From Candidatus Tectimicrobiota bacterium (lineage in GTDB: Bacteria; JACPSX01), in NCBI GenBank assembly GCA_016193065.1, contig JACPSX010000090.1:1-38193 (forward strand): 38,193 bases of DNA, written 5' to 3'. The notes under the pieces are model-generated. The model did not search any database and was not told where the DNA came from. It saw only the letters and a program-made list of their open reading frames with translations. Shown here piece by piece: positions 3,556 through 25,697 of this stretch. The translations under genes and the position numbers were made by a program. Numbering within the stretch: the stretch's first letter is position 1; each line of letters opens with the position of its first letter.

Positions 3556-3585
3556 AAGACGGACTGACGGGGTTGTCGTAAATGG

Positions 3586-3725
3586 ATTATGCCGTCCGTG
3601 ACGGCAGTGTTTCACGGCCGTAGGGGAGTTGTAAGATGTCTTGACAACTCCTTGGAACGGCAGGAAAATCTTAGGTGCTAAGGGAATTTTCGGGGACCGT
3701 GCTATGTTGAACCGTGTACTCAATA
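3586..3725 (+). promoter_or_regulatory. 140-bp non-coding repeat, copy 2; putative Pc/attI region
   Basis: About 84% identical to 405-544; TTGACA(3641-3646)-17 nt-GAAAAT; followed by one ORF and a complete attC. Confidence 0.55.
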
Positions 3726-5079: not shown

Positions 5080-5117
5080 TTTCTTGCCTCCGTAAGATAT
5101 GCCCGGCGCCGACCCTC

Positions 5118-6143: not shown

Positions 6144-6160
6144 GGCAGCCTCTCCTCTTC

Positions 6161-11153: not shown

Positions 11154-11532
11154 AATTCTCCTCGATTCGCATGTGATCATTGGCTGGCTCCGGGGGCAGG
11201 ACCCGGTGGCGGAAGTTGTCTCTGCTCTTCTCGAAAGCAGGGACGTTCTTTTGTGGACACCCGTGTCTGTTGCAGAGATATTCGCGGGTGCGAGAAAAGG
11301 AGAAGAGAAACAGTTAGAGAGCCTGTTTCTGGTGCTTGAAACTCTGCCCTTGTCGGCCGAGATAGGGAAAAAGGCAGGGGACTACCTGAGAACTTACTCC
11401 AGATCCCATCACTTGGAGCTGGGTGATGCGCTGATTGCTGCCACGGCTCACGCGCACCAAGTCCCTCTCTGGACTCTCAACAAGAAGCATTACCCCATGA
11501 GCGATGTCCGATTTTTCGTGCCGTCTCGCTAG
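11146..11532 (+). CDS. vapC: PIN-domain VapC toxin
   Basis: ILLDS, SVAEIF.G, LGDALIAATA, LWTLNKKHY; TTG start overlapping the antitoxin end. Confidence 0.88.
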   Translation: MAEILLDSHVIIGWLRGQDPVAEVVSALLESRDVLLWTPVSVAEIFAGARKGEEKQLESLFLVLETLPLSAEIGKKAGDYLRTYSRSHHLELGDALIAATAHAHQVPLWTLNKKHYPMSDVRFFVPSR

Positions 11533-11725
11533 GGCCTGCCTTCTCTATCTAGGGTCCGACAAACGGAGTTCCCCGGCTCCTGTCTCCATTTTTTCTCTTG
11601 AGAGACCGGGACCCTTTCTGGTAGCTTCCATCCACTGGGATAAAAATCCGCCGCTACAGGCTTGTCGGGCTACGAAAAAGAATTTTCCAGTAGTTGCCGT
11701 CACAAGTTTCCCTAAGGAGGAGGCC

Positions 11726-12460
11726 ATGTACTACGGCTGGAGAGGCGTCGTCGGCTACGTGAAGCCGACCCAGCGGCCGGGCACGCTGGAAGATTTCGTC
11801 AAGCTGATGCCCGACGGGGTCGGGGTGATTCCCGAAACCGTGGGAATCCGGATGGGAAGCGAGCAGGAGTTCCTGAAGGCGCTGGAGATCGCCGAGCAGA
11901 AGGTGGCGGAATTGAGCAAGTTGGGCGTGGACCTCGTGCTGATTGCCGGGGCCCCGCCGACCATGGTGCACGGCTACGGCCGCGATCGGGCCAAGGCTCA
12001 GGAGCTATCGCAGAAATACGGAGTTCCCGTTGTCACGGCCACCATGGCCCAGATGGAAGCTTTCCAAGCTCTCGGCGTCAAACGGATCGTGGGGATCAGT
12101 TACTTCAAAGATGACCTCAACCCTACCTTTGCCAAGTTTCTGCGGGATGGAGGGCTTGAGGTCCTGTGCATGAAGGGCTACGAGGTTCCCTTCGGAGAGG
12201 TGCAGAAGATTCCGCCCCAAGAAGTCTACGCTTTTGCCAAGAAGGTGTTCCTGGAAGCCGACCGCCCGGATGGGATCTACATTCTGGGCAACGGCTGGCG
12301 GGTCCTTCCCATCGTGAGGCTGCTGGAGCAGGACCTGCAGACCACGGTCGTCGCCAGCCTTCCGGCCCAGATCTGGGCTACTCTCAGGAGGCTGCACATT
12401 CGGGAACCGATCCCGGGGTATGGAAAGCTGCTCGCCGAGATGCCCTGGGACCTGTCCTGA
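11726..12460 (+). CDS. Asp/Glu racemase superfamily (maleate isomerase/arylmalonate decarboxylase-like), lacking catalytic cysteines
   Basis: YGWRGVVG...LMPDGVG, GVPVVTAT.A..EAFQALGVKRI, LEQDL...VVAS..AQIW..LR.L....PIPGYGKLL; AAGGAGG RBS. Confidence 0.8.
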   Translation: MYYGWRGVVGYVKPTQRPGTLEDFVKLMPDGVGVIPETVGIRMGSEQEFLKALEIAEQKVAELSKLGVDLVLIAGAPPTMVHGYGRDRAKAQELSQKYGVPVVTATMAQMEAFQALGVKRIVGISYFKDDLNPTFAKFLRDGGLEVLCMKGYEVPFGEVQKIPPQEVYAFAKKVFLEADRPDGIYILGNGWRVLPIVRLLEQDLQTTVVASLPAQIWATLRRLHIREPIPGYGKLLAEMPWDLS

Positions 12461-12498
12461 GCGGAGCCTGCCCTGGGCAGCGCCGAAGGGTCGAAGGG
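12451..12498 (+). repeat. Nested 24-bp palindromic micro-elements (CCTG..CTGAGC..TCGAAGGG family)
   Basis: CCTGTCCTGAGCGGAG[CCTGCCCTGGGCAGCGCCGAAGGG]TCGAAGGG; the outer unit supplies the upstream gene's TGA. Confidence 0.75.
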
Positions 12499-12529
12499 GC
12501 CGCTCTGATCGGGAACAATGGAGGAGGAC

Positions 12530-13051
12530 ATGGAAGGCAAGTGGGAAGAGGAGAAATGGGTTACGGACCTGCACATCAAGCGGGCCGAGCGGATGAAGGC
12601 CGACGACCTTAAGAGACGTTCCGGGCGAAAGATCATTCGCAAGTCCGAGGTGAATCTGCAATGGGAGCCCAAGAACGGCATCTGGATCTCCGGCCTGGTG
12701 ACCCGGGAGATGGGTTTTGAGAACCGGATCATCGAGGTCGATCTGCACGTGCTGCCCCCCGGGACCCACTCGATCACCCATAAGCACAACGAAGCGATCC
12801 TGCACATCCTGCGGGGCAGCGGGTACACGTTGATTGACGAGGAGCGCTTTGACTGGGAGGGGGGCGACACGGTGTACATCCCCATCGGGGCCTGGCACCA
12901 ACATTACAACCTGGAATCCGGGGAGGCGGCCGTGATCCTGGCCATCAAGCCGATCCCCTTGCAGGAATACCTGGGGGAGGTCCACATCGAGCGCAAGGGA
13001 GATACGCCGAAGATCAACGAATCCTGGAAGCCCGACTCCCTCGGCCTCTAA
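12530..13051 (+). CDS. Cupin domain protein (metal-binding, gentisate-dioxygenase-like subtype possible)
   Basis: HKHNEAILHILRGSG and GDTVYIP.GAWHQH cupin motifs; GGAGGAGG RBS. Confidence 0.85.
   Translation: MEGKWEEEKWVTDLHIKRAERMKADDLKRRSGRKIIRKSEVNLQWEPKNGIWISGLVTREMGFENRIIEVDLHVLPPGTHSITHKHNEAILHILRGSGYTLIDEERFDWEGGDTVYIPIGAWHQHYNLESGEAAVILAIKPIPLQEYLGEVHIERKGDTPKINESWKPDSLGL
12927..13051 (+). repeat. Cupin 3' tail, copy 1 (currently functional) of a 125-bp three-copy direct repeat
   Basis: Collinear without indels with 18252-18376 and 19877-20001. Confidence 0.95.
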
Positions 13052-13059
13052 TCCGGCTT

Positions 13060-13527
13060 TTAAGCACTCTTTGCTCGTACGACGAGATCGACGTCGCACT
13101 CAAGGACGTGAAGGAGCGACAACACCTGATCGACGGATTTGCGATAATTCGTCTGGTCAAGGAGCCGGTAGAACTGAGCTGCGGAGGTTCCGAGGCGCCG
13201 AATGATTTCCCGCTTGGAAAGAGGACTCGCCTCGACACGTTTCTGCGCTTCGAGTGTCAGCTTGTACAGTAGAAGGTCTCGCAGATAGGTGGGATCCTGA
13301 TTGTACTCCAGCACCTGCTCAATATGTACGGTTCCCTCTCTGCCTGACTGCAGAACGTACGTAAATCCTTCCCGGCCAAGGTCCGCATCCACGGACACCC
13401 GAGCCACGCCATCGTTTCTCGTCGGCTTCGGATCGGCCTTGGCGTACGGGAAAAGAAGGATCTGGGACGAGGTCTTTACCTCAAACGCCCTCTTTCGATT
13501 GTTGGCGGCGACCCTACGGATCTTCAT
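13060..13527 (-). CDS. HTH-containing antitoxin-like protein
   Basis: C-terminal HTH (LSKREIIRRLGTSAAQFYRLLD); start overlaps the stop of a collapsed upstream ORF (ATGA). Confidence 0.65.
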   Translation of the reverse strand: MKIRRVAANNRKRAFEVKTSSQILLFPYAKADPKPTRNDGVARVSVDADLGREGFTYVLQSGREGTVHIEQVLEYNQDPTYLRDLLLYKLTLEAQKRVEASPLSKREIIRRLGTSAAQFYRLLDQTNYRKSVDQVLSLLHVLECDVDLVVRAKSA

Positions 13528-13597
13528 AGAAGGCCCTCGGACTCAAGTCAGGTCTTTCCCGTCGGCTAATGCTACCCTCTGTGGTAACGGTTGTCAA
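13524..13597 (-). pseudogene. Sigma70 promoter plus 39-nt stub of a deleted upstream (toxin-like) gene
   Basis: TTGACA(13597-13592)-17 nt-TAGCAT, then ACG-GGA-AAG...CTT GAG TCC GAG GGC CTT CTA TGA overlapping the next ATG. Confidence 0.55.
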
Positions 13598-13669
13598 GAC
13601 CAGTTCGCTGGACTCTTCTGGTCCGCCGCAGTATTAGCCGCGGGCCATGGAGCGGCCCGTCGGCTGGTA

Positions 13670-13886
13670 GGATCAAGGGGTGGCACCGCTGACGGAAATC
13701 GCCCGACGGTTCAACCGGGACGTCTCAACGCTGAGTCGGGCAGTGGAGGCATTGCAGCGCATCGCCAGCGCGGGCGGGCCTGTCTGCGTGTCCCCGCCTG
13801 CGTGTCCGCGCGGGCAGGCGCACAGGCAGGCCAGAGGCGAAATCATTGTTCAAACGTCAAAAAGCAATTATGCAAGCCTGACCCTT
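13670..13886 (+). pseudogene. C-terminal remnant of a REP-associated (Y1/RAYT-type) transposase with HTH tail
   Basis: APLTEIARRFNRDVSTLSRAV and terminal AAAGCAATTATGCAAGCCTGACCC resemble, from recollection, the ends of this transposase group; no HUH domain present. Confidence 0.5.
13779..13830 (+). repeat. Nested 26-bp palindromic micro-elements (CCTGTCTGCG..CGCACAGGCAGG family)
   Basis: CCTGTCTGCGTGTC[CCCGCCTGCGTGTCCGCGCGGGCAGG]CGCACAGGCAGG; inner and rejoined outer units differ at 4 of 26 nt. Confidence 0.8.
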
Positions 13887-13930
13887 TCTTACGATCTGGT
13901 GTCAATATGCCTTACTTCCTTCGTCTTTTT

Positions 13931-13970
13931 CTGACCTTTCCCCCTGGAGGGGGAAGGTCAGGATGAGGGG
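13931..13970 (-). repeat. CCCCTCA-type REP-like hairpin
   Basis: Reverse strand CCCCTCATCCTGACCTTCCCCCTCCAGGGGGAAAGGTCAG; same family as 24635-24670; downstream of the SWIM gene. Confidence 0.65.
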
Positions 13971-14021
13971 CAACGTGAGAGGGCGATAAGTCAAGGAGTG
14001 TCGGCTGGATTTCGTCCTCTA

Positions 14022-15005
14022 TCATTTGCGGCGGCGAGCCGGTGTGACCTTCTTCGGACTCCGCTTCCGAGTTGACGGAGGAGAGCTCGCAGGAGCCTCC
14101 GAGTTACTCTCGTCGGTCGCCGCTCCCAGGGCCAGCTCGCGGGCCAGCGCAGCGGCGCGCGAGACCGCGGGTTGCAGGAGAGCTCGCGGCGTCTGAGAGA
14201 GCTGCCAGGAGAGCGGGGCCCCAAGCTGGCGGAGGAGGGAGCCCTCGACAGCGGGGGCGCCGATGTGAAAGCTCAGGTCATCCACGGACTCGCGGAAGAC
14301 CTCGTAGCGGTCGGGAGTCATTCGTTGGGACGCGCTGGCGGCGGGAGCAGAAGCCTGCTTCCCGGCGTGTGTGCGCTCGGCGGTTCCCGAAGCGCTGCGG
14401 AGCCGGCGCAGCGCCGCCAGCACCTTCTCCTTGGTCCGCCCGCGCAGCTCGAAGAGGAGGAATGGGTCGCGGTCGAACGCCTCGCCGAGCACGTAGTGGA
14501 CCGCGGCCACATGCTTGCAGGGATTGGCCCAGTCCGGACACGTGCACGCGGTGACGAGATCCTTTTTCGTTTCGGGGAAAAGACTTGCCCGGCAAGCTTG
14601 AAACGCCTCGTCGATCTCGCGCGGCATCTCGCCGGAGAGGAGGCGCGCGGCGAAGACGGCGCGGCCGGCCATCTCCTTGATGGCCTTCTCCCAAACGCGG
14701 GCGCCGAGGGCTGCCAGGCGGATCGTCACCTTGTAGGGGGTCGGGCGCGAGCCGGTCACGCGGGCTGTTACCACTCCGTCCTTGACAGTGAGGTCATGGA
14801 CGCGGCCCTGCCGGGCATAACTTCGTCCCCGCCCGAGCCGGGCCGAGTACTCCCCGCCGAATCGGTCCAGCGCCTGGATCCAGCGCTGCCCCCACCAGGT
14901 GGAGCCGAACTTCTTGACTTTGATCCCGTGCTCGGGAGGTGGGAGCTTGGGCGGAGGAGGCGGGTAAAAATCGCTGTCCCATCCCCAGTAGCCCCGGCCC
15001 ATCAC
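14022..15005 (-). CDS. SWIM zinc finger family protein
   Basis: RLGRGRSYARQG, A.VTGSR..PY.V, CTCPDWANPCKH (CxC..CxH), DPFLLFELRGR. Confidence 0.92.
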   Translation of the reverse strand: MMGRGYWGWDSDFYPPPPPKLPPPEHGIKVKKFGSTWWGQRWIQALDRFGGEYSARLGRGRSYARQGRVHDLTVKDGVVTARVTGSRPTPYKVTIRLAALGARVWEKAIKEMAGRAVFAARLLSGEMPREIDEAFQACRASLFPETKKDLVTACTCPDWANPCKHVAAVHYVLGEAFDRDPFLLFELRGRTKEKVLAALRRLRSASGTAERTHAGKQASAPAASASQRMTPDRYEVFRESVDDLSFHIGAPAVEGSLLRQLGAPLSWQLSQTPRALLQPAVSRAAALARELALGAATDESNSEAPASSPPSTRKRSPKKVTPARRRK

Positions 15006-18000
15006 TTTCGCCCTTTCCTGGAACCCGCCTTGGCGGGCGCTGCCGTCTCGTCCTCGTTATCGGCGACCACCGCATCCCTCGAGAGCGCGAAGAGGCCCCT
15101 CAGCTCGGCGTCTGACAGCTCGGTAATCCACGCCTCACTGGCTCCCACGATTCGTTCGGCCAGGGCGCGCTTGTCCGTGAGAAGCGCGTCAATCTTCTCT
15201 TCCACGGTCCCCGCGGTCAGGAGCCGGTAGACCTGGACGAGCCGCCGCTGGCCGATCCGGTGGGCGCGATCGGTAGCCTGGTCCTCCACCGCGGGATTCC
15301 ACCAGCGGTCGAAGTGGAAGACGCGGGTGGCGTGCGTGAGATTGAGCCCGGTGCCGCCGGCTTTGAGAGAGAGGACGAACACCGGCGGTCCGTCCTCCTG
15401 GAACCGGCGCACCATGGCGTCGCGGGCTGCCCGGGGCACGCCGCCGTGGAGGAAGGGGACCTCGCGCTGGAGCGTTCCTGAGAGGTGGGCCACAAGCCGA
15501 TCGCCCATTTCGCGGAACTGGGTGAAAACGAGGGCGCGATCCCCCGAGGCCACTGTCTCCTCCAGCATCTCGGTAAGACGGTCGAGCTTTCCCGAGCGGC
15601 CCGGGAAGGGGCCCCGCTCGCGGAGATAGTGGGCAGGGTGATTGCAGATCTGCTTGAGCGCCGTGAGTAGGGCCAGGACGATGCCCCGGCGCTGAATCCC
15701 TTCGGCTGCTTCGATTTTGGCCATGACCTCATCCACCTGAGCCTGGTAGAGAGTGGCCTGCTCACGCGTCAGCGTGCAGACCACCGCCATCTCTTGCTTG
15801 GGCGGGAGGTCGGCGAGAATGCCGGGATCGCTTTTGAGACGCCGCAGCACGAAGGGGCGGATGACCCGGCGAAGCTCCTCGGCTGCCCCGTTGTCGCGGT
15901 AGCGCTCGATGGGGACGGCGAACCGCCGCCGGAAACGCTCCAGGGGACCGAGCAGCCCGGGCACACAGAAGTGGAGAATCGACCAGAGCTCGGCCAGCCG
16001 GTTCTCCACAGGGGTTCCGGTGAGGGCAAAGCGGTGGGTGGCTCGCAGAGCCCGTGCAGCGTGGGCCTGCCGGGAGGCGGCGTTCTTGATGTTCTGGGCT
16101 TCGTCGAGGACCGCCACCGCCCAGTCCATCTCGCCCAGCAGAGCCTGGTCGCGTCTCAAAAGGCCGTAGGTCGTGACTACCACAGCGTGGGGAGGTGTGT
16201 GCCGCAGGGCTTTGAGGTCTCGTGCCCGCTCCGGTCCGTGGTGGCGCAGGACGGGCAGGGCCGGGGAGAAGCGCGCGAGCTCCCGCTCCCAGTTGCCGAC
16301 CACCGAGGTGGGGCAGACGATGAGCGCAGGGCGTGGATCGCCGGTCTCGGCCGCCCGCCGAGCCAGGAGGAAAGCGATGGTCTCAACGGTCTTGCCAAGC
16401 CCCATGTCGTCCGCAAGACAACCGCCCAGGCCGAGGCGGGCCATGAGGGCGAGCCAAGACAGCCCTCGCTCCTGATAGGGGCGGAGCGTCCCCTGGAGAT
16501 CAGCCGGAGGCAGGATGGGATCCATCCCGGCCCGAAGCCGCTCGATTACGGAAATGAGCAGCCCTTCGGGAACGACTTCCACCGGCACCCGGATTCCTTC
16601 GCGGGGGAGCGTTCCTCCCAGTGCGGCGGCCAGGGCTTCAGGGATCTGAAGCTTTCCGCCTCTCTCCTTCTGCAGGTGGTGGCGGATTTCGGCAATCTCG
16701 TTCGGGTCCAGAACCACCCACTCGCCGCGCCACTGAACCAGGGGTCGCTTGAGGGCGACCAGAGCACTGAACTCTTGAGGCGAAAGGGTCTGATCGCCGA
16801 GAGCCAGCTCCCAGCGATAGGCGACCAGGCCGTCCAGCGACAGGCGTCCTTCGCCGGACACGGCTCCTGCGACGCCCGGCGCCGCGCCCACCCGCATCCT
16901 GAGCCTGAGCCGTCGCTGCCCGGCGGGGGACAGTTCGGCCGGGAGGAGCACCGTGAAGCCGGCCTCGCTGAGGAGGGGTGCTCCATCCGAGAGGAAGCGC
17001 CATGCTTCGTCGTCACTCAAGGGCACGGACTCCGGGCGCGCGGCCTCGAGGCTTCTCTCGACGGGAGGAAAAAGCCTTGCGGCCTGGGCTAGCCCTTGGA
17101 GGAGCAGTTCCTGAGGCGCCGCGAAGGTCCGGTCCATCCACTGAAGGCGGTCCCCCGGCGCAGCCCAGGCGCGCTCTGCGGGGAGGAGAAGGCTCGGATC
17201 GTCGGCGGCCTGAAGGAAGTAGCGCAGCTCCCAGGGGCGGCCTCTTCCGGCCCGGGTTCCATTGCCGGGTGGGTCCAGCTTGAGGCACACGCGGGGGGTA
17301 TTGGCGGCCAGAGCTCCGCGGACCGGCGCGACCCACCCGCTGATCTCTTCGGGCAGGCCGCGCTCGAGGAATCCGTGGGTCGGGAATACCGGGTCGGACC
17401 CTGTCAGCGCGGCAATGAATTTCCCTTCCCAACTGCCTCGTCCTTGCGCAGGCAGAGGCACCTGGGTCCGAGCTGCCGCCTCCCTGTCCAAGGCGTCCGC
17501 CGTCGCATCCAGGAACTCAGCGAGAAGCGTCTCGGGGGCCCAGAATCGAACGGTCTCTCGATACTGCCGTTGAGGTCTGCGGCCGCGGCTGGGCAGGGGA
17601 TGGTCTTCGCGGTCAGTAGGGACCGCGTGGGCTGCCGGGGGGAAGGCCCGGGCGAGAGCGGTAAATCGCTGGGAGTCATCGGGAAGAGCCAGTGAGACTC
17701 CCCAGCGGGCTTCCGCTCCCTCCGGGGCCGGGAGTACCAAGGGAAGTATCCGCTCCCGCGCTACCAGGTCGAGCGCCAGCTTGGCCGCAAGACTCCAGGC
17801 TGCGACCGATGCCGGAACGCCCTCAAGATCGGCAGCCTCGATCCTGGCCAGCACAGCGACTCCGTCGAGGAGTCCGATCCTGAGCCCGCGGACCTGCTCG
17901 GCTTTCCCGTGGTCAGACACAACTCGAACGGTGGCGCGCCGTCCGGAGGCAGCGAGCCGTTCGATGATACCGGCGTTTGCGCTGCCAGGATCGCTTCCCC

Positions 18001-18055
18001 AGAGAAAAAACTCCGGGCCGCCAACCGGGCGCGGACGAAAAACGAGATGGTTCAT
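15002..18055 (-). CDS. SNF2-family DEAD/DEAH helicase (DUF3670-type N-terminus)
   Basis: LRPYQ, LADDMGLGKT, DEAQ, LTGTP.EN, GGTGLNLT, WNPAVEDQATDRAHRIGQ; 4-nt overlap with the SWIM gene; start uncertain. Confidence 0.95.
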   Translation of the reverse strand: MNHLVFRPRPVGGPEFFLWGSDPGSANAGIIERLAASGRRATVRVVSDHGKAEQVRGLRIGLLDGVAVLARIEAADLEGVPASVAAWSLAAKLALDLVARERILPLVLPAPEGAEARWGVSLALPDDSQRFTALARAFPPAAHAVPTDREDHPLPSRGRRPQRQYRETVRFWAPETLLAEFLDATADALDREAAARTQVPLPAQGRGSWEGKFIAALTGSDPVFPTHGFLERGLPEEISGWVAPVRGALAANTPRVCLKLDPPGNGTRAGRGRPWELRYFLQAADDPSLLLPAERAWAAPGDRLQWMDRTFAAPQELLLQGLAQAARLFPPVERSLEAARPESVPLSDDEAWRFLSDGAPLLSEAGFTVLLPAELSPAGQRRLRLRMRVGAAPGVAGAVSGEGRLSLDGLVAYRWELALGDQTLSPQEFSALVALKRPLVQWRGEWVVLDPNEIAEIRHHLQKERGGKLQIPEALAAALGGTLPREGIRVPVEVVPEGLLISVIERLRAGMDPILPPADLQGTLRPYQERGLSWLALMARLGLGGCLADDMGLGKTVETIAFLLARRAAETGDPRPALIVCPTSVVGNWERELARFSPALPVLRHHGPERARDLKALRHTPPHAVVVTTYGLLRRDQALLGEMDWAVAVLDEAQNIKNAASRQAHAARALRATHRFALTGTPVENRLAELWSILHFCVPGLLGPLERFRRRFAVPIERYRDNGAAEELRRVIRPFVLRRLKSDPGILADLPPKQEMAVVCTLTREQATLYQAQVDEVMAKIEAAEGIQRRGIVLALLTALKQICNHPAHYLRERGPFPGRSGKLDRLTEMLEETVASGDRALVFTQFREMGDRLVAHLSGTLQREVPFLHGGVPRAARDAMVRRFQEDGPPVFVLSLKAGGTGLNLTHATRVFHFDRWWNPAVEDQATDRAHRIGQRRLVQVYRLLTAGTVEEKIDALLTDKRALAERIVGASEAWITELSDAELRGLFALSRDAVVADNEDETAAPAKAGSRKGRK

Positions 18056-18135
18056 AGTAGAAATCCCGGGGGGCACCTTAGCGGAAGGGCTCGCCCAGGT
18101 CAACGGAAAATCCAACAGCTAAAAATTGAGAGGAC

Positions 18136-18251
18136 CTCGGGGCGCGCACTCAGGAGTGTTACACCCGCGCCGTGCGCATGCTTTGTGACTTCTACGGCAA
18201 GAGCCCGAATCTCGTTCGAGATTCTGCACCCCCAGTGAGGGAAAAGACTGC
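18136..18251 (+). pseudogene. Tyrosine recombinase N-terminal (SAM-like) remnant, internally deleted, fused to cupin tail copy 2
   Basis: LGARTQECYTRAVRMLCDFYGKSPNL//EILHPQ*GKRLPAV; homologous to 19721-19876. Confidence 0.75.
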
Positions 18252-18376
18252 CGGCCGTGATCCTGGCAATCAAGCCGATCCCTCTGCAGGAGTACCTGGG
18301 GGAGGTTCACATCGAGCGCAAGGGGGATCAGCCGAAGATCAACGAGTCCTGGAAACCCGGCCCCGACGATTTCTAG
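18252..18376 (+). repeat. Displaced cupin 3' tail, copy 2
   Basis: AVILAIKPIPLQEYLGEVHIERKGDQPKINESWKPGPDDF*; versus copy 1, 8 synonymous and 1 non-synonymous codon differences up to WKP. Confidence 0.95.
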
Positions 18377-18442
18377 ATTCTCTCTCCGTGTGGGGAAATT
18401 GGAACGAAGAAGATCTCTTCGTTTCGTTCGGAAGTTTTTCAG

Positions 18443-18625
18443 CTAGCGCGATATCTGGTAGATCACCGGACGGTAGCGTGGCGGCGGGATCGGCTTCCCC
18501 GCCTTCTGAGCCGCTTCCAGCCAGGCCACCTTGGCGCGCTCCAACTCCTCTAGTGCCTTCTCGGGGGTCTCACCAAAGGCGGAGCAGGACTCCAAGTCCG
18601 TAATGTCGGCGATGGTGTCCCTTCA
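18443..18625 (-). pseudogene. hicB: 5'-deleted HicB family antitoxin
   Basis: IADITDLESCSAFGETPEKALEELERAKVAWLEAAQKAGKPIPPPRYRPVIYQISR*; no intact N-terminus. Confidence 0.75.
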
Positions 18626-18654
18626 AATGACTTGTGCCCTTTGTTGGGGATCGT

Positions 18655-18864
18655 TCATGGGTATTCGTACACAGGGGTCTCGATCACTCTGGCAGGCTTC
18701 TTCCGCCCCTTGATCAAAGCTTGAATGTGCTCCACGGTCTCAGGGGAAAAGGACTGCTCCCCAGTCTCCCGGCACACACGGGCTGGCACATGCTCAATAA
18801 TGTAGAATTTCCCGCCGTGGGCCAAGGTGTACGTGACTTCCGTTTCAATCATTGTTTCCTTCAT
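18655..18864 (-). CDS. YgiT-type zinc finger (MqsA-like) protein
   Basis: VTYT...GKFYIIEHVPARVCRETGEQ.FSPETVE motif. Confidence 0.8.
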   Translation of the reverse strand: MKETMIETEVTYTLAHGGKFYIIEHVPARVCRETGEQSFSPETVEHIQALIKGRKKPARVIETPVYEYP

Positions 18865-18875
18865 GTTGACTCACC

Positions 18876-18962
18876 TCATGGGTCCTGCTTCCTGATCCGG
18901 AAGTCCACCCATAGATCCGGGTCTGGTTCATAGAGCGTGATAATCTTGATCAGCGGACGGCC
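18876..18962 (-). pseudogene. C-terminal stub of DUF4258-type toxin
   Basis: RPLIKIITLYEPDPDLWVDFRIRKQDP* directly upstream of the YgiT-type gene, its usual partner. Confidence 0.7.
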
Positions 18963-19026
18963 AAGTGACCTCAAGGGTGACCGATGGCTGGAGGACCTCG
19001 ATAGGTTAGGCGAGAATTGTTCCTGA

Positions 19027-19257
19027 CTACTTTCCTGTGGTGATGAGATTAAGCACTTTCGCCTGCACCCCTTCCATGATTACATCTCTCACGAAAGTGC
19101 TGGCGTTTAAGATCTCTATCCCAATGAGCTCGCCTTTGTCATTCAGCTCTGCTGTAATGTTGGGACTCAGCTCGATACTGTTTGCTTCTTTCTCATCGGC
19201 AATGACGAGATGCAGAATGTCTTCTTGCTCGAAGTACGCCATCCTCGGTTTCTTCAT
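19027..19257 (-). CDS. DUF2283 domain protein (antitoxin-like)
   Basis: YFEQEDILHL...SIELSPNITAELNDKGELIGIEILNAS; followed by GCCTAAC (19011-19005) inverse core. Confidence 0.85.
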   Translation of the reverse strand: MKKPRMAYFEQEDILHLVIADEKEANSIELSPNITAELNDKGELIGIEILNASTFVRDVIMEGVQAKVLNLITTGK

Positions 19258-19463
19258 GGTCTGAATCTCCCTGTCCGCAGCCGAAAGTTGACTTGCTGCC
19301 GGGTGGTGGCATGAATGGTGATCGGCGTCAGGGTGTCATGCTCTTGTTCATAGGGCACCATAACTAACCGATTCCCGTGTCGTCCAATGGCCACCATGCG
19401 CTGTGTGGCCGTATCGAAGTAGCGTTCTTCAGAAAGTTTCAAGTAGTCGGTCCAGATAATCAT
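19254..19463 (-). pseudogene. DUF4258/BrnT-like toxin, probably internally deleted
   Basis: IIWTDYLK joins directly to LSEERYFDT...LVMVPYE...TPITIHATTRQQ; the helix expected between them appears missing; ATGA overlap with the DUF2283 gene. Confidence 0.55.
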
Positions 19464-19522
19464 TCTCGTTCGCCTGCGTCACCACTCCGATAATCCGGAC
19501 ACGTTTGGATGCTTCTCCTGCC

Positions 19523-19582
19523 GCCTAACGGACTGCCCATAAGCCGACGGCGCAACCGGTCGGCTTCATGGGCTTGTTCAAG
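19523..19582 (-). other. Integron attC site (60 bp, well preserved)
   Basis: Minus strand CTTGAAC-AAG-CCCAT(G)AAGCCGAC-...-GTCGGCTTATGGG-CAGTCC-GTTAGGC, with an extrahelical G and a perfect GTTRRRY. Confidence 0.88.
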
Positions 19583-19720
19583 TAAGCCGCTCCACGGCAG
19601 CATTTTCTTCCCACTGTAACAGACTTCCATCCTCCTGCCACAAAAAAAGTTCCAAGGGCTTTTCGGACCAGCCGGTCATCTGCTTTCCTTTTCCTGGTCC
19701 GCGCCGTCAACGGACACATC

Positions 19721-19876
19721 ATGACCGACTGGTACGAACAATCGGTGGCGGCCCTGCCACTGGACGGATTCGGGGCGCGCACTGAGCAGTGCTACACCCA
19801 CGCCGTAAACATGCTTTTCGACTTCTGCGGCCAGAGCCCGGCTCTCTCCTGCGCGCCCAGCAGGAGAAAGGGCTGC
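19721..19876 (+). pseudogene. Tyrosine recombinase N-terminal remnant fused to cupin tail copy 3
   Basis: MTDWYEQSVAALPLDGFGARTEQCYTHAVNMLFDFCGQSPAL//LRAQQEKGLPAV. Confidence 0.78.
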
Positions 19877-20001
19877 CGGCGGTGATCCTGGCAATCAAGC
19901 CGATCCCCTTGCAGGAGTACTTTGGAGAGGTCCACATCGAGCGCAAGGGGGACCAGCCGAAGATCAACGAATCTTGGAAACCCGACTCCCTCGGCTTCTA
20001 A
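19877..20001 (+). repeat. Displaced cupin 3' tail, copy 3
   Basis: AVILAIKPIPLQEYFGEVHIERKGDQPKINESWKPDSLGF*; 13 mismatches in 125 versus copy 1, 8 of 11 changed codons synonymous. Confidence 0.95.
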
Positions 20002-20019
20002 TCCGCCTCTTCGCGTGGG

Positions 20020-20118
20020 CGACAACGCACTGGCGCTCAGCCGCGGACGGCGCGCCACCGCTGCCAAGTGAACAATGATGCGCGCCGACCGTCGGCTGCA
20101 AACGGTGAGTGGGACGGC
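20020..20118 (-). other. Degenerate attC site
   Basis: Minus strand CGTTT(G)CAGCCGACGGTCGGCGCGC...GCGCGCCGTCCGCGGCTGAGCG..GC-GTTGTCG; inverse core is mutated. Confidence 0.65.
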
Positions 20119-20138
20119 ATAAGGGCACGGATGATTTT

Positions 20139-21866
20139 CTAGGTCGCCAAGGAACTCTGACTTGCTTGGCTGTCGTCATAGCAGCGGCCTTCGGGGCCGC
20201 CGATGACTAGAGAACCTCGACCTGTCTGCGTGCAACGCACAGGCAGATAGGTGTTTGGTGTAGGGCCTCGCGGGCCCAGCATGCTCCTCTTGAGAGACTT
20301 GCTTGTGCGGATGAAAACCCTATCTCTCTGGTAGTCGAAATAGGCACGTTCGTTAACGAACTCGAAGTCAGAAACGGCAAACTTCGCCCGGCCCCACTCC
20401 CGACGGCTCCACTGCGGGCCAATCTCTTCTACCCGAGACACCTGATGGCCTTCGTGGGTCCAGGTCTGGGACTGGTTCAGTGAGGGCTGCTTGGGGCAAA
20501 TGGTGTATAGGAACTCTGTCACCTTCCTCAGAGCAGCACAATCCTCCATGTTGTACGTCGTCAACGTTTCCTTGAAAGCCGCCGAAATGGTCGCCTCCCA
20601 CTTGCGTCTCCAAACGATACTTTGAATGCCTGACGCTTCCGCTTCCGTCCACCTGAATCCCAGATACCTGCCGATGTCCTTTAGACTGTTGGAATAGGTG
20701 GGAAAGTAAACGTGCGAATAAATGATCGAGAGAACGTTTACCGAGCGAGTCAGAATTTTCTCGTCAAGCTCGTGCCGGCCCGATTCCTTTATCATTCGCC
20801 GCAGGAACGCGGACTCATAGCTTCCGTAGGAGTAGAGGCAATAGTCTTCCAACACGTCCATCACATCGAGGAATTGCTGGAACAGTTGGGGCTCCTCGGC
20901 CTGGGTGTCGACCCAGAACGAGTGACGCTCCTCTGTCCCGTTCCGCTCGATGATCACGCCCCCCAGGTATGCGAAGCGACGTTCTGGGTCGCCCTCTATG
21001 TCGAAGTATATCCGAGTGGAGCAGGACGGTAATTCGGGGGGACTGAGCACATAGATCTTCTTGTCGCGAATGGCCAGTGCCTGTAAGGCTGGGTGATGAG
21101 GCTGACTCTTCTGTTTCGACTGCTTGCTCCTCTTCCGGGGTCGGAAGGTGCAGGATAACTGGGTGATCGTGAAGATGCCTCTTTTGTTGTACTTTTTGAT
21201 CTCCTTCTCGCTCATTCTCCGTAGTAAGCTGAGGTCATCCTTCGCTGTCGCCTCTGCGTGACAGTGTTGCCGGAACTCGCAGATCTGGCAATGGCTGTTG
21301 AGCATGAGCCTCGGAGGCATGTCTTGGCCATGGATTTCCCTGATCTCCTGCATGGTCCGCTGGGCATTTTCAACATTCGCGTTCAGCTTGATCCTCCTGA
21401 CATTGCAGCCTCGCCCGTGAATGAGAACCCCGCTGCCGGGGTATCTCCCTTGGAGATCGCCGATGATTAGGCCGCACACCTCTAACAGATCCTTCTGCAG
21501 CCTGCTGGGCCTTTCAGTCTCGTGGAACAACACCGGAATGTAGTGGAAATTGCCTAGCGGTGACGGTCCAGCTTCTTTCTGGAGGGCATCAAAACGGACG
21601 GAAAGCTCTTTATCCTCTACAGAGGCATTCAAGAAAAGTGGCACGCCGTCCATCAACGTCGCAAGCGTCATGGCAAGGCCCCGCAGGATATCATCTTCCT
21701 TGTGCCGGGCCACAAGTTTGTCCGCGGCTGCCAGCCGTATCAGGTTTCTGGACTCTACCAACAGTAACTCATAGTCTGATCGGATACCCTGTTTCTTGGC
21801 CAGCTTCAGGTGTCCCTTGTACTTGCATTGCAAGTAACTCTCCAGAACGGCCCTGGTGATCTTCAT
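20139..21866 (-). CDS. TM0106-family RecB/Cas4-like nuclease with RNase H-like domain, probably 3'-truncated
   Basis: N-terminal YLQCKYK plus HCQICEFRQHC (four-Cys cluster), DDLSLL..MS, GIFTITQL, YFDIEG, YSNSLKDI, YNMEDC.AL; the last ~45 codons run through a palindromic element and a hairpin. Confidence 0.8.
   Translation of the reverse strand: MKITRAVLESYLQCKYKGHLKLAKKQGIRSDYELLLVESRNLIRLAAADKLVARHKEDDILRGLAMTLATLMDGVPLFLNASVEDKELSVRFDALQKEAGPSPLGNFHYIPVLFHETERPSRLQKDLLEVCGLIIGDLQGRYPGSGVLIHGRGCNVRRIKLNANVENAQRTMQEIREIHGQDMPPRLMLNSHCQICEFRQHCHAEATAKDDLSLLRRMSEKEIKKYNKRGIFTITQLSCTFRPRKRSKQSKQKSQPHHPALQALAIRDKKIYVLSPPELPSCSTRIYFDIEGDPERRFAYLGGVIIERNGTEERHSFWVDTQAEEPQLFQQFLDVMDVLEDYCLYSYGSYESAFLRRMIKESGRHELDEKILTRSVNVLSIIYSHVYFPTYSNSLKDIGRYLGFRWTEAEASGIQSIVWRRKWEATISAAFKETLTTYNMEDCAALRKVTEFLYTICPKQPSLNQSQTWTHEGHQVSRVEEIGPQWSRREWGRAKFAVSDFEFVNERAYFDYQRDRVFIRTSKSLKRSMLGPRGPTPNTYLPVRCTQTGRGSLVIGGPEGRCYDDSQASQSSLAT
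20221..20246 (+). repeat. Single palindromic micro-element (CCTGTCTGCG..CGCACAGGCAG)
   Basis: CCTGTCTGCGTGCAACGCACAGGCAG, same family as 13779 and 26653. Confidence 0.8.
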
Positions 21867-22094
21867 GACTTATCTCTAAACCGGAATTTCCTGTTTGATC
21901 CGAAACTTCACGTAAAGATAGTGTCCTATGATTATCTCTGCCACCCTAGCAGCCGTCATAGGCGCCTTGCTCGCCAAACAGATTCTCGAAGTCACACCAT
22001 CGATTCATAGTCAATAGGTGAGACTCCGAGGAAGAGGGAACCATCTGCTCAGAAAGCACCCTCGATCCTAACCATCCCTACTGCGTCAGAGATG

Positions 22095-22231
22095 TCAGCT
22101 AACGGGCCGCTCACGCCTTTGCCGCCCCGGCTTAGAACGAGCGTATAGATCGTGGTGGTCTTGACATCCTTGTGGCCGAGAAGCTCCTGGACGGTGCTCG
22201 TGCTGTAGCTATCTTTCAGGAAAGATGTGGT
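22095..22231 (-). pseudogene. intI: C-terminal remnant of an integron integrase
   Basis: [41 protein letters not shown] matches the IntI consensus [38 protein letters not shown]. Confidence 0.85.
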
Positions 22232-22277
22232 AAGGGTTGGGGAGGACCAGAGAGGACGTCCGTCATCCATACTCAAT

Positions 22278-22372
22278 CCTCCAGACGTGAGACCTGGAAC
22301 TCGGATGGAAGCTGCAAGTTCGCGGTGGGTGGATTGTAAACCCGTCCAGTTCGCGGGCACAAGGAGTTTTTC
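22278..22372 (-). repeat. 95-bp direct repeat, copy A (coding remnant of an unknown gene)
   Basis: 11 mismatches versus 23110-23204; minus frame [31 protein letters not shown]. Confidence 0.85.
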
Positions 22373-22520
22373 CACAGACCTTTTGTCCTGTAGGATGCCT
22401 GTTCACCCCCGCCCTCCCCCTCCACCCGTCAAAAAAGCGATTATGGGAGCCTGATCCTATATAAGCGCGTCCTTTGCAGCGGCAGATCAAAGTGCATGGG
22501 CTCAACAGCCATGATCACGG

Positions 22521-22805
22521 TCACTGAATTTCCAGTCTATTGAGTTTTTTCATCAGCCAACGTTCAAACTTGGCATTCTCACCGAAACGGTGCTTTGCGT
22601 GACTGAGGATTTGATCGCGTTGAACTTGGGGAAGCTCTCGTATAAGCCCCATCCCTTGGTCAATCGCGTCGGGAGATGAATTCGAGAGAAGTTTTCGCAG
22701 AGCCTTGCTGCAAGGATGCTCCTCACCGAGAAGATCCATCGCGACACGAGCCGCGGCCTCAAAATAATCTCGGGGTATGGCAGGTTTGTCGTTTTGCGTA
22801 GCCAT
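22521..22805 (-). CDS. Hypothetical helical protein
   Basis: GGAGG RBS before ATG 22805; lower GC than the flanks; bracketed by the 95-bp repeats. Confidence 0.55.
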   Translation of the reverse strand: MATQNDKPAIPRDYFEAAARVAMDLLGEEHPCSKALRKLLSNSSPDAIDQGMGLIRELPQVQRDQILSHAKHRFGENAKFERWLMKKLNRLEIQ

Positions 22806-23109
22806 AGAATACCTCCGTTGCGTGTCTTGTAATCTAATATCATCAAATTGACAGGCGCGCCGCACTCATTCGTGCGTCGGTAAGCCCTTGCTTAGCCATG
22901 TCCCTTCAGCCTGGCCTTAGCATGCTCGATTTTGTTGATAGCCTGCTGTGGTAGATACAGGAGCGCATTCTTGAAGGATCTGAGTGAATCTTCTCCCCAC
23001 CCGCGCCTTTCCCGATTAACCTCCTGAGCTGCAAGAGAGTAGCTGACAAGTGCGCCGGGCTCCTGGTGCCCTTGCCCCCCCGGTTGAGGATGTGCGTATA
23101 GATCTCGAC

Positions 23110-23204
23110 CCTCCAGACGTGGGACCTGAAACTCGGATGGAAGCTACAAGCTCGCGGTAAGTGGATTGTAAACCGGTCCCGTTTGCAGGTACAAGGAGTT
23201 TTTC
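23110..23204 (-). repeat. 95-bp direct repeat, copy B
   Basis: [31 protein letters not shown]; about half of the differences from copy A are synonymous. Confidence 0.85.
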
Positions 23205-23253
23205 TCCCCCGGCTGGAGAGCCTCCATGTCCGGCCGGTCTCAGGTTTGATAAG

Positions 23254-23687
23254 TCAGGATCGATAGTCGCCGATCCAGCGAACGCGAGAGCCTTTTTCCG
23301 GCAGGCGTTGTAGAAGGCACGGTCTCCAGTCCACACTTCACTGTCCAGCTTCTCTGCAATGGCGAGATAGGCTCCATCATAGGCGGATACCCTCCACTGC
23401 AAGGAAAGCAAGAAGATCCGGGAGGGATCTGCGGGAATTAGCCGGATTCCCGCAGCGAGCAGGGAGGTGAGCCCTTCTTCTGCTTGATGCCTGGAAAGTC
23501 GCAGCCGGCGCGTTGCGGTAACCATCCCATTGGCCAGCTCGTAAACAAGTAGGGACGGCGCAGCGAGGTTGATCCGGCCATGCAGAAGGAAATCATCTCG
23601 CAAGGCAATCGCTTGGGCCACAGCATCTTCATCGTCCAGTTGCCATTTCAGAACTACGGACGCATCAACAACAATCGGGGAGGGCAC
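23254..23687 (-). pseudogene. vapC: PIN-domain VapC toxin with a 1-nt frameshift near the C-terminus
   Basis: VVDASVVLKW, YELAN, SAYDGAYLA.A, WTGD; adding one A in the A5 run (23293-23297) restores the family-like end KGSRVRWIGDYRS*. Confidence 0.75.
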
Positions 23688-24208
23688 TATCTCCGTCTTC
23701 CCTCTCGGATCAGCTCGGAGACGGGAATGTCAATGGCTCCGATCTTTTTGCGGAGACGGTTCATCCGCTCGACGAGAGCCCGGTTGGGTTCTTTCTTTTC
23801 CTTAACAACCGGCACCCTCTCCATCTTTTTGAGCAGATCCCGCAGAAAGGCCCGGATGGTCACGGTGCGCTCTCCGTTCCGGTGAGGGTATACATCGGAG
23901 GGGTATGTCTTTCCTGGCTCATAGATCAAGAGTGCGGGAACGGCTCTTCCAAACAAAAATCCCGAGCGCCTGTTGCTCCCGAACACCTTCCTTACCTGAT
24001 ACTTCTTGTAAACGGCCGGCAGCAAAGCTTCGTCATATAGGTTCGACAATTCTCCGTCCGGCATACTACGGATGTCAATGATCTCGCAGGATATTCCCAG
24101 CTCTTCGAGTCGTCGCAAGATTTCCTCGATTTCAGGGAGGTCAAACCCCTCGTTGACCGGATCGCCCAAGGGGAGCATTTCCGAATGATAGACAAGCTTG
24201 AGTCTCAT
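23687..24208 (-). CDS. Unusual 173-aa VapB-like protein: unknown alpha/beta domain plus C-terminal antitoxin-like helix
   Basis: Stop overlaps the vapC start; C-terminus ALVERMNRLRKKIGAIDIPVSELIREGRRR resembles VapB neutralising tails. Confidence 0.65.
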   Translation of the reverse strand: MRLKLVYHSEMLPLGDPVNEGFDLPEIEEILRRLEELGISCEIIDIRSMPDGELSNLYDEALLPAVYKKYQVRKVFGSNRRSGFLFGRAVPALLIYEPGKTYPSDVYPHRNGERTVTIRAFLRDLLKKMERVPVVKEKKEPNRALVERMNRLRKKIGAIDIPVSELIREGRRR

Positions 24209-24634
24209 CTCGACTACCTCTACCTGTACCCCTACCACATCCCCTCCCACAGGTCAAGCCGATTTTTCTTTAGTAATTCCTGAAGCCTCTGGATTTTCTG
24301 GCCGGCCATATGGCCCGGGACTCGTCGCCGTTAGGTGGCGCCATGAATATAACTTTGCTCGACTTCACGAGGCCCTGGATCTGGCTGTGCTCGCCACACG
24401 CCATCAGCCCAGCCTGCGCTTGTTCCGGGAGAGCTTATCTCCCATGGAATATCCCAGCGAAGTGCAGGTGCGCAAAATGCAGTAAACCGGAGAGGTGTGT
24501 TTCCGTCAGCCGGATTGAATTGCGAAACGTTCCATGAAACTGTTACCTCTGTGCCCGGTACATTTGTTACCATTGACTCCGGTCCGAATAAGGGGAGAGG
24601 ATGGGAAAGAGAGTGGTAGAGAAATGCGAAGGGA

Positions 24635-24670
24635 CCCCTCACCCCGGCCCTCTCCCCCAAAGGGCGAGGG
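24635..24670 (+). repeat. CCCCTCA-type REP-like hairpin
   Basis: CCCCTCACCCCGGCCCTCTCCCCCAAAGGGCGAGGG, just downstream of the hpnD-like stop. Confidence 0.7.
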
Positions 24671-24691
24671 AACTGTTGTGGAGTCCGGACA

Positions 24692-25552
24692 CTAGGGCGT
24701 GAGCTGCAGCCTCAGCCATATCCGGGTGGCCAGGAAGAGTTTCCGGAGCACCGGAAAGTCCACGCGCCCGTCGAAGACATTGAAGTTTCTGCGGGCGATC
24801 TCTTCCAAGATTCTGCTGTACAGAGCCCGCATGGTTTCCGAGACCGCCAGGGTTTTCCTCTCCTCCCGGGGCAGGAAGGAGCGAGCGCGCTGGTAGTAGT
24901 CCTTGGCTCGATCGTACTCAAACGCCATGAGCTGCCGGAAGGAAGGCGTGTAGCGATGGGCTAGGAGATCTTCCTCGGAATAAGAAAACCGCTCCAGGTC
25001 TTCCAGGGGGAGATAGATGCGTCCTCTCAGAGAATCTTCTTTAAGGTCTCGGAGGATGTTTGTCAGTTGAAAACCGATCCCCAGATTCTCGGCGTACTGC
25101 CGGACCTTGGGGTCGCGGTAGCCGAAGACTTCAATGCACAGGAGGCCCACGATGGAGGCCACCCGATAGCAGTACTGGTAGAGATCGGAAAAAGTCGAGT
25201 AGCGGGTTCGGGTAAAGTCCATGGCGACCCCGGCCAGCAGCTCGTCAAAGTACGATTTCGGCAAATGAAAACGTTCCACCTGGGGGCTCAAGGCGCGGGT
25301 GATCGGGTGTGAGGGTCTCCCTTCGTAGGCGTGCTCTAATTCCCGTTGCCACTCCTGGAGCCTTCCCAGGCGCTCCTCCGGGGCGCCCTGGTCGTCGCTG
25401 ATCTCGTCGGAGTAGCGGCAAAAGGCGTAGAGGGCATAAATGGCCCGTCGCTTCTCTGCGGGCAGGAACAAAAAACTGTAATAGAAACTCTTGGAAGTTC
25501 TCTTGGTAAGCTCTTGGCAGTAGAGTTGGGCTTCGAGGAGGCTTTGGTCCAT
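24692..25552 (-). CDS. Phytoene/squalene synthase family, most like presqualene diphosphate synthase HpnD
   Basis: SFYYSFLFLP, YAFCR.SDEISD, YCYRVASIVG, LGIGFQLTNILRDLKED..RGRIYLP. Confidence 0.88.
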   Translation of the reverse strand: MDQSLLEAQLYCQELTKRTSKSFYYSFLFLPAEKRRAIYALYAFCRYSDEISDDQGAPEERLGRLQEWQRELEHAYEGRPSHPITRALSPQVERFHLPKSYFDELLAGVAMDFTRTRYSTFSDLYQYCYRVASIVGLLCIEVFGYRDPKVRQYAENLGIGFQLTNILRDLKEDSLRGRIYLPLEDLERFSYSEEDLLAHRYTPSFRQLMAFEYDRAKDYYQRARSFLPREERKTLAVSETMRALYSRILEEIARRNFNVFDGRVDFPVLRKLFLATRIWLRLQLTP

Positions 25553-25697
25553 TGGGCCTCTGCCTGGGCGGGTGCTTGTCCCGTTAAATGCCCGCTCCTT
25601 GTTATCCTGTAAGGCCCTAGCATAGGGCAGTTTGGGGGCAATTGCAAGAAGGCTCCGGCCCCGGTATGGACTTTTTTCATCTGCGAGGATCTCGCGC

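Follow-up and report, generated by a model that had tools for sequence, protein, structure and literature searches.

The window analysed here is a contig of 38,193 nucleotides (JACPSX010000090.1, assembly GCA_016193065.1) of a Candidatus Tectimicrobiota bacterium, in which the 3' end of a cupin gene is followed by two blocks of apparently acquired DNA, each closed by a further copy of the same gene end. The source is a metagenome-assembled genome (MAG) from groundwater that comprises 2.9 Mb in 294 contigs and is 86% complete. The cupin gene (12518..13051, plus strand; 177 aa; Pfam Cupin_2, E 1.3e-10), located downstream of an arylmalonate-decarboxylase-like (Amdase) gene (11504-12460), is an intact open reading frame (ORF) and is 87% identical to the orthologue from the one genus mate, G001. 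The final 125 nt of the gene are present three times, as direct repeats on the plus strand. Tail 1 (12927..13051, plus) is the working end of the cupin gene and ends in ...WKPDSLGL; tail 2 (18252..18376, plus; ...WKPGPDDF) and tail 3 (19877..20001, plus; ...WKPDSLGF, like the G001 cupin) are displaced cupin ends. Between the tails lie island 1 (13052-18251), with a 155-aa ORF, a SWIM protein and an SNF2 helicase as cargo, and island 2 (18377-19876), which carries small ORFs of the toxin-antitoxin type.

An earlier reading of the same DNA, made from the sequence alone (hereafter, the sequence-only reading), had reported the three tails with their common 5' boundary and without indels, and both a repeat search and BLAST bear this out. 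Tails 1 and 2 are 90.7% identical over 108 nt (E 5e-37), tails 1 and 3 are 88.9% identical over 135 nt (E 1e-44), and the second and third copies, together with the adjoining sequence on their left, are 79.9% identical over 259 nt (E 2e-60). The tails, which are mutually 85-89% alike (14-19 differences per 126 nt), contain 0 indels and share the reading frame and the position of the stop codon.

The sequence to the left of each displaced tail, here called an arm, is the remnant of a tyrosine integrase gene. Arm 2 (18136..18251, plus), which closes island 1 on the right, is missing the first 16 codons, and arm 3 (19721..19876, plus), which closes island 2 on the right, begins at the ATG; the two are homologous, and each is frameshifted and internally deleted. 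The arms match the SAM-like integrase N-terminal domain of Pfam PF13495 at positions 1-39 and 16-38, with E values of 4e-4 and 2e-3 that fall below the curated cut-off, and encode the first ~45 residues of the N-terminal domain of a SAM_4-type integrase. A frameshift and the loss of ~55 codons follow, and then a linker, ..IL(R/H)xQxEK(R/G)LPAV, which in the form ..ILRxQxEKxLPAV aligns with the RLPVVLT linker, ..RAKRARRLPVVLTKEEV, of an integrase fragment on contig C41 of the same genome. The domain matches and the linker alignment together sustain the original identification of the arms as internally deleted N-termini of a tyrosine recombinase.

The arms join the tails at LPAV|ILAIK. The microhomology between integrase and cupin that had been noticed at this join is present and is longer than originally seen: tail 1 encodes Ala-Ala at the junction site, where Pro-Ala is found in the genus mate and in all 6 of the database homologues compared, so that the microhomology amounts to 10 nt, GCCGGCCGTG. 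The genome contains four copies of the arm, the two in the window and one each on contigs C131 and C199, and all four share the internal deletion, which indicates that the integrase was already dead in their common ancestor. On C131 and C199, the arm continues past the join point of the window as native integrase codons, LS(T/A)Q(Q/E)VR, and then runs into a dispersed repeat that is described below. The arm tree, which was used to compare single with repeated formation of the junction, has only 4 informative sites (1, 2, 1), and it is simplest to assume that the arm-to-tail junction originated once. The 5' boundary shared by tails 2 and 3 may accordingly have been inherited from a single microhomology deletion as its end point, and gives no evidence for a crossover site. 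A contig from a run of another study (X5) joins an arm-3-like end via CTGC to a further tail variant, with 7 differences from tail 1, 5 of them synonymous and the remaining two altering one codon; junctions of this type therefore exist in a related population.

All the cargo genes recognized in the two islands are on the minus strand. Island 1 encodes the 155-aa ORF (13060..13527; a weak match to HTH_31, E 0.0098, below the cut-off), a SWIM zinc-finger protein of 327 aa (14022..15005; Pfam SWIM, E 2.5e-4) and an SNF2 helicase of 1037 aa of the SCO1167/SCO6262 type (15002..18115; Pfam SNF2-rel_dom, DUF3670 and Helicase_C), which matches NCBIfam NF058637 with E 3.6e-255, under the equivalog cut-off. 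The small ORFs of island 2 (18443..19463) include a YgiT-type zinc-finger, MqsA-like protein (18655-18864) and a DUF2283 protein (19027-19257), along with two ORFs without a family match (18443-18595 and 19254-19463). The G+C content is 0.67-0.71 in the SWIM/SNF2 block, 0.51-0.56 in island 2 and 0.58-0.62 in the flanks. Pfam and NCBIfam scans of the ORFs of both units detected no integrase, relaxase or transfer genes. Two indels at the strain level were observed in island 2, namely, 89 extra letters at 18613/18614 in contigs of metagenome sample X1 and 54 extra letters at 19435/19436, inside the 69-aa ORF, in contigs of samples X1 and X2.

The pattern of substitutions, counted by the Nei-Gojobori method (with tails counted up to WKP and binomial p values), differs between tails and arms. 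Tails 2 and 3, both displaced, differ by 9 synonymous and 1 non-synonymous substitutions (p 1e-5); the bias that the sequence-only reading saw between them is thus genuine, and the count is 9:1 rather than 8:1. When the G001 tail is added to the three tails of the window, the synonymous excess is found in 6 of 6 pairs, with p from 1e-5 to 8e-4. The proportion of synonymous differences (pS) is 0.30-0.43 among the tails, which is close to the 0.50 of the 5' part of the cupin gene when the two species of the genus, the present genome (G000) and G001, are compared. Between arms 2 and 3, read in the N-terminal frame, there are 3 synonymous and 11 non-synonymous substitutions, the ratio expected under neutrality. 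The formal comparison thus upholds both parts of the original contrast, mostly synonymous differences among the tails and mostly non-synonymous ones between the arms. In addition, the end of tail 2, GPDDF, resembles the GPGDF end of an 80%-identical cupin orthologue from public metagenomic assemblies (P0002); judging by this comparison, ..WKPGPDDF is a natural cupin ending and not a product of decay. This resemblance and the synonymous bias together indicate that each of the tails once formed a functional gene end, each in its own lineage. Substitutions unique to tail 3, as read off the alignments, are ~5 synonymous and 1 non-synonymous, and the arms have diverged by 20-24%, which implies that tail 3 was a working end until recently. 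Tail 3 has thus been dead for less time than the arms have been diverging, and arm and tail pairs were re-assorted after the junction type arose. The value of such a synonymous signature is that it tells ends once at work in another lineage from duplication in place.

The lineage is sparsely sampled: among the 60 nearest-relative genomes, there is 1 genus mate, G001, and the others share only the domain, and no closer family than this one genus mate exists among ~200,000 species genomes. At the locus, G001 has a single cupin gene that ends in DSLGF, like tail 3, without an arm or an extra tail. The gene is followed by ~400 nt with a small two-helix ORF and then by homologues of 22286-22372 and of 24523 onwards. 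Apart from the tail, the only part of 13052-20138 present in G001 is a 57-nt stretch of a dispersed repeat. A metagenomic contig, L028, that is 99.5% identical to the G001 contig shows the same empty site, and the two together count as one independent relative. The search for an unoccupied site that the sequence-only reading had proposed thus ended in a positive result. A search of 61 genomes with the arm and tail DNA gave matches in 3, namely, G000, G001 (tail only) and one other, in which the match of 37 nt (E 5e-4) was taken as chance. A pattern search returned 42 stretches from metagenomes, with 2 relatives and 1 orthologue (the contig 99.5% identical to that of G001), 1 stretch from genome contigs (the G001 contig) and 0 from viral contigs.

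The assembly is supported by independent Logan contigs from X1 and X2, two samples of one study. Such contigs lead from the cupin gene with tail 1 to the 155-aa ORF of island 1 (X1 and X2), from the SNF2 gene through arm 2 and tail 2 into island 2 (X1), and from island 2 through arm 3 and tail 3 to 20135 (X1 and X2), with an even depth of 24-30 in X1 and 14-15 in X2 across the bridging contigs. Among the rows listed, 20135-20480 and 22665-23104, both at dispersed repeats, are unbridged. X5 and X6 cover pieces of islands 1 and 2 at 90-100% identity and show almost nothing of the Amdase, RecB-like and squalene/phytoene synthase flanks at an identity of at least 90%, although missing cover of this kind proves nothing.

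The window itself contains no intact integrase, as had been noted before. PF00589 matches it at a single place, where 32 residues from the C-terminus of a tyrosine integrase remain (22139..22234, minus; E 1e-4, below the cut-off); this fragment is 50% identical to the integrase of contig C77 over 32 aa. The inventory for the whole genome consists of one intact integrase of the SAM_4 type, on C77, and 6 fragmentary PF00589 matches, 3 of which sit within tail-flanked islands. The C77 integrase is a 406-codon frame (1506-2399) on a 2.6-kb contig that ends in repeats, and contains an insertion, ..ALEQKYKNAAKEFIWQWFFPAK.., which we take to be typical of integron integrases.

The anatomy of the cupin locus recurs elsewhere in this genome. 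Among 83 same-contig direct-repeat pairs examined, there are 15 (~10 loci) in which the end of one copy is at most 25 nt away from the stop codon of a frame of at least 150 codons and the other copy lies downstream. Substitutions were counted in 8 pairs; 5 show a clear synonymous excess, and 3 are unusable (one misaligned, one with too few changes and one at 8.5:7.5, p 0.058). Altogether, at least 4 other genes in the genome carry displaced, synonymously diverged tails. On C37, the displaced tail differs from the working end by 10 synonymous and 4 non-synonymous substitutions, and a decayed integrase located 275 nt before it reads towards it, in the same layout as the arms of the window. On C131 (23:13), a C-terminal integrase fragment adjoins the new tail. 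On C67 (2643-7653; locus L053), there is a second stacked array in which the last 118 nt of a gene for a 772-aa protein occur three times around two cargo units, with synonymous to non-synonymous counts of 9:0 and 7:0. The corresponding G001 contig, C70, has only the distal C67 unit, directly beside the gene and 89% identical (the target gene itself is 81-82% identical), from which it follows that the C67 unit beside the gene body is the newer one.

We interpret the cupin locus as the result of two decayed integrative islands having accreted in tandem at the 3' end of the gene, each bringing its own working tail, and assign this reading a probability of roughly 85%. The proposal of two separate, horizontally acquired and stacked units, already part of the sequence-only reading, now draws on the empty site, the G+C content of the cargo, the tail bias in all pairs and the natural GPGDF end. 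Each unit would have arrived from another lineage with its own copy of the last ~40 cupin codons, which provided a new working end, and the former end would have been pushed downstream as a dead direct repeat, yielding the order cupin 5' part, tail 1, island 1, arm 2 and tail 2, island 2, arm 3 and tail 3. By analogy with the C67 array, island 1, which adjoins the gene body, would have arrived last, and tail 3 would be the oldest resident end; displaced gene ends of this kind can record the order of island arrivals.

Under this scenario, the arms would be leftovers of the elements' own integrase gene, at the far end of each island and reading towards the displaced tail. One ancestral element would have lost ~55 internal integrase codons, with a frameshift, and a deletion between two copies of GCCGGCCGTG would then have removed everything from the ..RLPAV linker codons as far as the beginning of the displaced tail. 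The two scars are present in each arm, and so both units appear to descend from that dead element. The founders would have been integrase-bearing islands that targeted and replaced the cupin 3' end, in the manner of the element e14 at the icd gene of Escherichia coli; the presence of integrase fragments in tail-flanked islands (3 of the 6 in the genome) favours such an origin. Descendants of the dead element may have moved on as passengers resembling cis-mobilizable elements (CIMEs), with a live element or a recombinase of cupin-site specificity integrating beside the units or moving composites that held them. Whether a helper recombinase did move the integrase-dead units is, in our estimate, an even bet. 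The shared deletion and junction place the death of the integrase in the ancestor, in agreement with the previous argument that either help in trans or RecA was needed, and today both units are probably immobile unless helped.

The most serious alternative attributes everything to homologous recombination. The junction would have arisen once, by microhomology deletion, and the units would then have spread as ordinary DNA, without a site-specific recombinase; stacking would have occurred when the displaced tail of a donor paired out of register with the working tail of the recipient, or by Campbell-type single crossover of a circle excised through tail-by-tail recombination. We consider both the spread and the stacking by this route possible and somewhat unlikely. 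A 10-nt GC-rich microhomology is a mark of illegitimate joining, and cargo B of C67 is a 2.5-kb ORF pair without a trace of integrase. However, tails of 125 nt that are 85-89% alike are a poor substrate for RecA, integrase remnants in the tail-flanked islands of 3 of 5 target genes (cupin, C37 and C131) are not predicted by homology alone, and, with a single exception among the clean cases, the repeats end with the stop codon.

The exception belongs to a set of observations that count against accretion by site-specific integration and, in part, in favour of homology alone. A luciferase-like monooxygenase gene in the window (5118-6272, minus) has its last 290 nt (5101-5390) repeated at 3246-3535 in a copy that is 86% identical, in frame, with a stop codon and with 20.5 synonymous to 16.5 non-synonymous substitutions. 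After the copy come 71 nt from the aldolase gene downstream (3169-3239), so that the homology passes the stop codon into the next gene, as predicted by homologous recombination and not by an att site. The boundaries in the C67 array are not fixed either: the middle tail, with a different 5' boundary, is 65 nt long and the distal one 118 nt. No intact cognate integrase was found: tblastn with the arm N-terminus in the 86%-complete MAG returned only pseudogene copies, and among 5.8 billion proteins there was no intact relative of the MTDWYE... integrase (of 5 longer-protein candidates, none was significant). A protein search for short ORFs made of orphan tails likewise gave no candidate, and no live element targeting the cupin site was detected in the metagenome, genome or viral contig collections. 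Among the X1 and X2 joints listed, there were no excision, circle or deletion joints, although contigs hide rare forms. The continuity inside island 1 comes from the original assembly only, given that 13728-14490, at a dispersed repeat, is unbridged among the rows listed. Finally, the deletion between integrase and tail may have left an att-like junction that is no longer a recombinase substrate.

Another extension of the accretion scenario would treat the units as a 'gene-end cassette' system, in which integrase-less units with toxin-antitoxin, Abi-like or helicase genes carry a spare host-gene end as a portable att site; we regard this as distinctly doubtful. We hold equally little confidence in its mechanistic part, whereby the junction of dead integrase and tail would serve as an internal att site, and one or a few SAM_4-type recombinases resembling integron integrases and acting in trans, such as that of C77, would stack and shuffle the units at several genes. 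If true, such a system would be a functional integron with gene ends in place of attC hairpins.

The integrases of the SSV type, from archaeal viruses and plasmids, have attP inside the integrase gene, and, when the element is integrated, an N-terminal piece of the integrase directly borders the 3' portion of the target, as the arms do here. It could accordingly be argued that GCCGGCCGTG is an attP core within the integrase at ..RLPAV, that each junction is a genuine attR and that the C131 and C199 copies are unsplit. Their native codons past the exact join point, the joining of old, diverged arms to 'fresh' tails and the different tail attached to the arm-3-like end in X5 all fit such a scheme. 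Integration of this kind would, however, cut the cupin gene and leave an integrase C-terminus after its 5' half, with a repeat of only the att core at the two junctions; instead, a complete replacement tail 1 follows the gene, no plus-strand integrase C-terminus is found after tail 1 or tail 2, the repeats are three tails of 125 nt and not 10 nt, and all four arms were already dead through their shared internal deletion. Given the intact tail 1, this explanation is largely refuted, and we deem it very improbable.

An origin in place, with tails 2 and 3 derived from tandem duplication or from truncated full-length cupin paralogues and the cargo inserted later, is just as improbable: duplicates and paralogues are common in the genome, as the 83 direct-repeat pairs attest, and a long-functional paralogue would likewise show a synonymous bias, but this history requires two truncations at the same 10-nt site, both joined to the same dead integrase remnant, and sits poorly with the single cupin of G001 without an arm or an extra tail, with the similarity of the tail 2 end to another orthologue lineage and with the differing G+C content of the cargo blocks. 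Least probable of all is an assembly artefact that linked variants of a single locus from different strains via the 125-nt repeat they share, to be considered for a groundwater MAG of 294 contigs with dispersed repeats in the region and some joins unbridged among the rows listed, because the copies differ by 11-15%, enough for long k-mers to separate them, independent Logan contigs of even depth from two samples run across each tail into unique sequence to its left and right, and the contig leaves and re-enters flanks that are adjacent in G001.

The variable zone, from 13052 to ~24520, is wider than the two stacked islands. Beyond tail 3, it includes a TM0106-family RecB-like nuclease gene (20139..21866, minus; NCBIfam TIGR03491, E 6.4e-70) that is absent from G001, and a direct repeat, R, with copy A at 22252..22372 and copy B at 23086-23204, 84% identical, flanking a 0.7-kb block with small ORFs. 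Copy A reads in frame into the minus-strand C-terminal integrase fragment, and neither Rfam, nor a tRNA search, nor folding yielded anything for this repeat. A 1.3-kb block with a PIN-domain ORF and a 187-aa ORF lies beyond it, before synteny with G001 resumes at 24523..24586, ahead of the squalene/phytoene synthase gene (24692-25789); in G001, a single repeat R directly precedes the homologue of 24523. No tRNA, tmRNA or Rfam family was detected in the window or in 12000-25500.

Several dispersed repeats are scattered through the zone. Island 1 contains one that we denote HTHseg (13682..13890, plus), composed of the end of a helix-turn-helix protein pseudogene, ..LTEIARRFNRDVSTLSRAV.., a GC-rich hairpin and a conserved motif of ~35 nt. 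It has matches on 10 other contigs, including C188, C131, C199, C116, C198, C233, C292, C73 and C114, and an X1 depth ~6x that of its neighbours. We considered the possibility that the HTHseg of island 1 and the arm followed by HTHseg on C131 and C199 are halves of one opened circle, and rejected it because the HTHseg of the window reaches further upstream than the C131 copy, as befits a many-copy repeat with varied truncations. C188 has three HTHseg copies, all oriented alike, which flank a gene of methylase type and a pair of small genes. On C233 (15053-22254), six copies of a 125-175-nt repeat occur within 7 kb at a spacing of 0.7-2 kb, each ending in the ~35-nt motif of HTHseg, in what looks like the layout of a cassette array. 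The stretch just upstream of arm 3 (19548..19721) is found again at, or close to, the ends of C62, C187 and C207, and a short dispersed repeat at 20209-20281 matches C164, with a depth bin ~6x that of its neighbours. Elsewhere in the window, the span 4487-5390 pairs with 3169-3535 in the luciferase-like duplication, and a 127-nt direct repeat (398-524 and 3579-3705; 86% identical, 3 kb apart) lies near a gene with a PRiA4_ORF3 domain (1227-1853).

Some features of the locus are shared with integrons. The arm matches a SAM_4-type N-terminal domain, C77 encodes an intact integrase of the same type, and the small-ORF cargo is on the strand opposite to the integrase remnant, all in the manner of an integron. 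However, the locus has no intact intI, its integrase being a pseudogene, and the repeated unit is a gene end and not attC: a scan of 12900-24700 for RYYYAAC...GTTRRRY gave one palindromic pair (22500-22625) and no array. When the three junction regions, the hairpin of HTHseg and repeat R were folded and compared with shuffled sequences, no significant hairpin was found (z -1.0 to +1.3).

The likeness to e14 is closer. The cryptic prophage e14 (and phage 21) carries an alternative 3' end for icd of E. coli and leaves behind the displaced icdC pseudogene, with mostly synonymous and a few conservative differences (PMC13626634). The cupin locus matches this description: direct repeats of the gene 3' end flank the inserts, the cupin gene stays whole with an end supplied by the element, the old end remains downstream as a C-terminal fragment, the ends differ mostly by synonymous changes with a few conservative replacements, and the site is unoccupied in the relative. 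Unlike the cupin islands, e14 has a working integrase and excises upon SOS induction; only frameshifted remnants of 116 and 156 nt and the 32-residue fragment are found here. Moreover, e14 is a single element that is not stacked, and no integrase remnant is fused to its displaced end.

The anatomy as a whole is that of the CIME model. Elements of the ICESt1/ICESt3 type at the 3' end of fda in Streptococcus thermophilus are described as undergoing integration, decay and accretion at a gene-end att site (PMC5704250). The model has elements at the 3' end of a protein-coding gene, decayed units that keep the att repeats without the integrase and transfer genes, a further element that enters at the gene-end att site to give three att copies and two tandem cargo blocks, and dead units that need a related live element to move. 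The cupin units, bounded by tails and free of integrase, relaxase and transfer genes, conform to this description, as does their accretion, with three tails and two cargo blocks in one orientation and a second such array on C67. The fda att cores are short and identical, in contrast to the repeats here, which consist of 125 nt of coding sequence and are 85-89% alike. Further differences are that the displaced tail begins right where the integrase remnant ends and that no live partner is present or known. As an account of mobile-element biology in a nearly unsampled deep groundwater lineage, the case suggests that dead elements keep spreading after integrase loss; it raises the question of how integrase-dead units keep moving, and recurrence at five or more genes makes this lineage suited to testing a helper recombinase against homology alone. 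The anatomy that the sequence-only reading had proposed as an undescribed system is that of CIME accretion (PMC5704250) combined with the gene-end replacement of e14 (PMC13626634). The locus reveals a known way of collecting mobile DNA and not a new kind of system.

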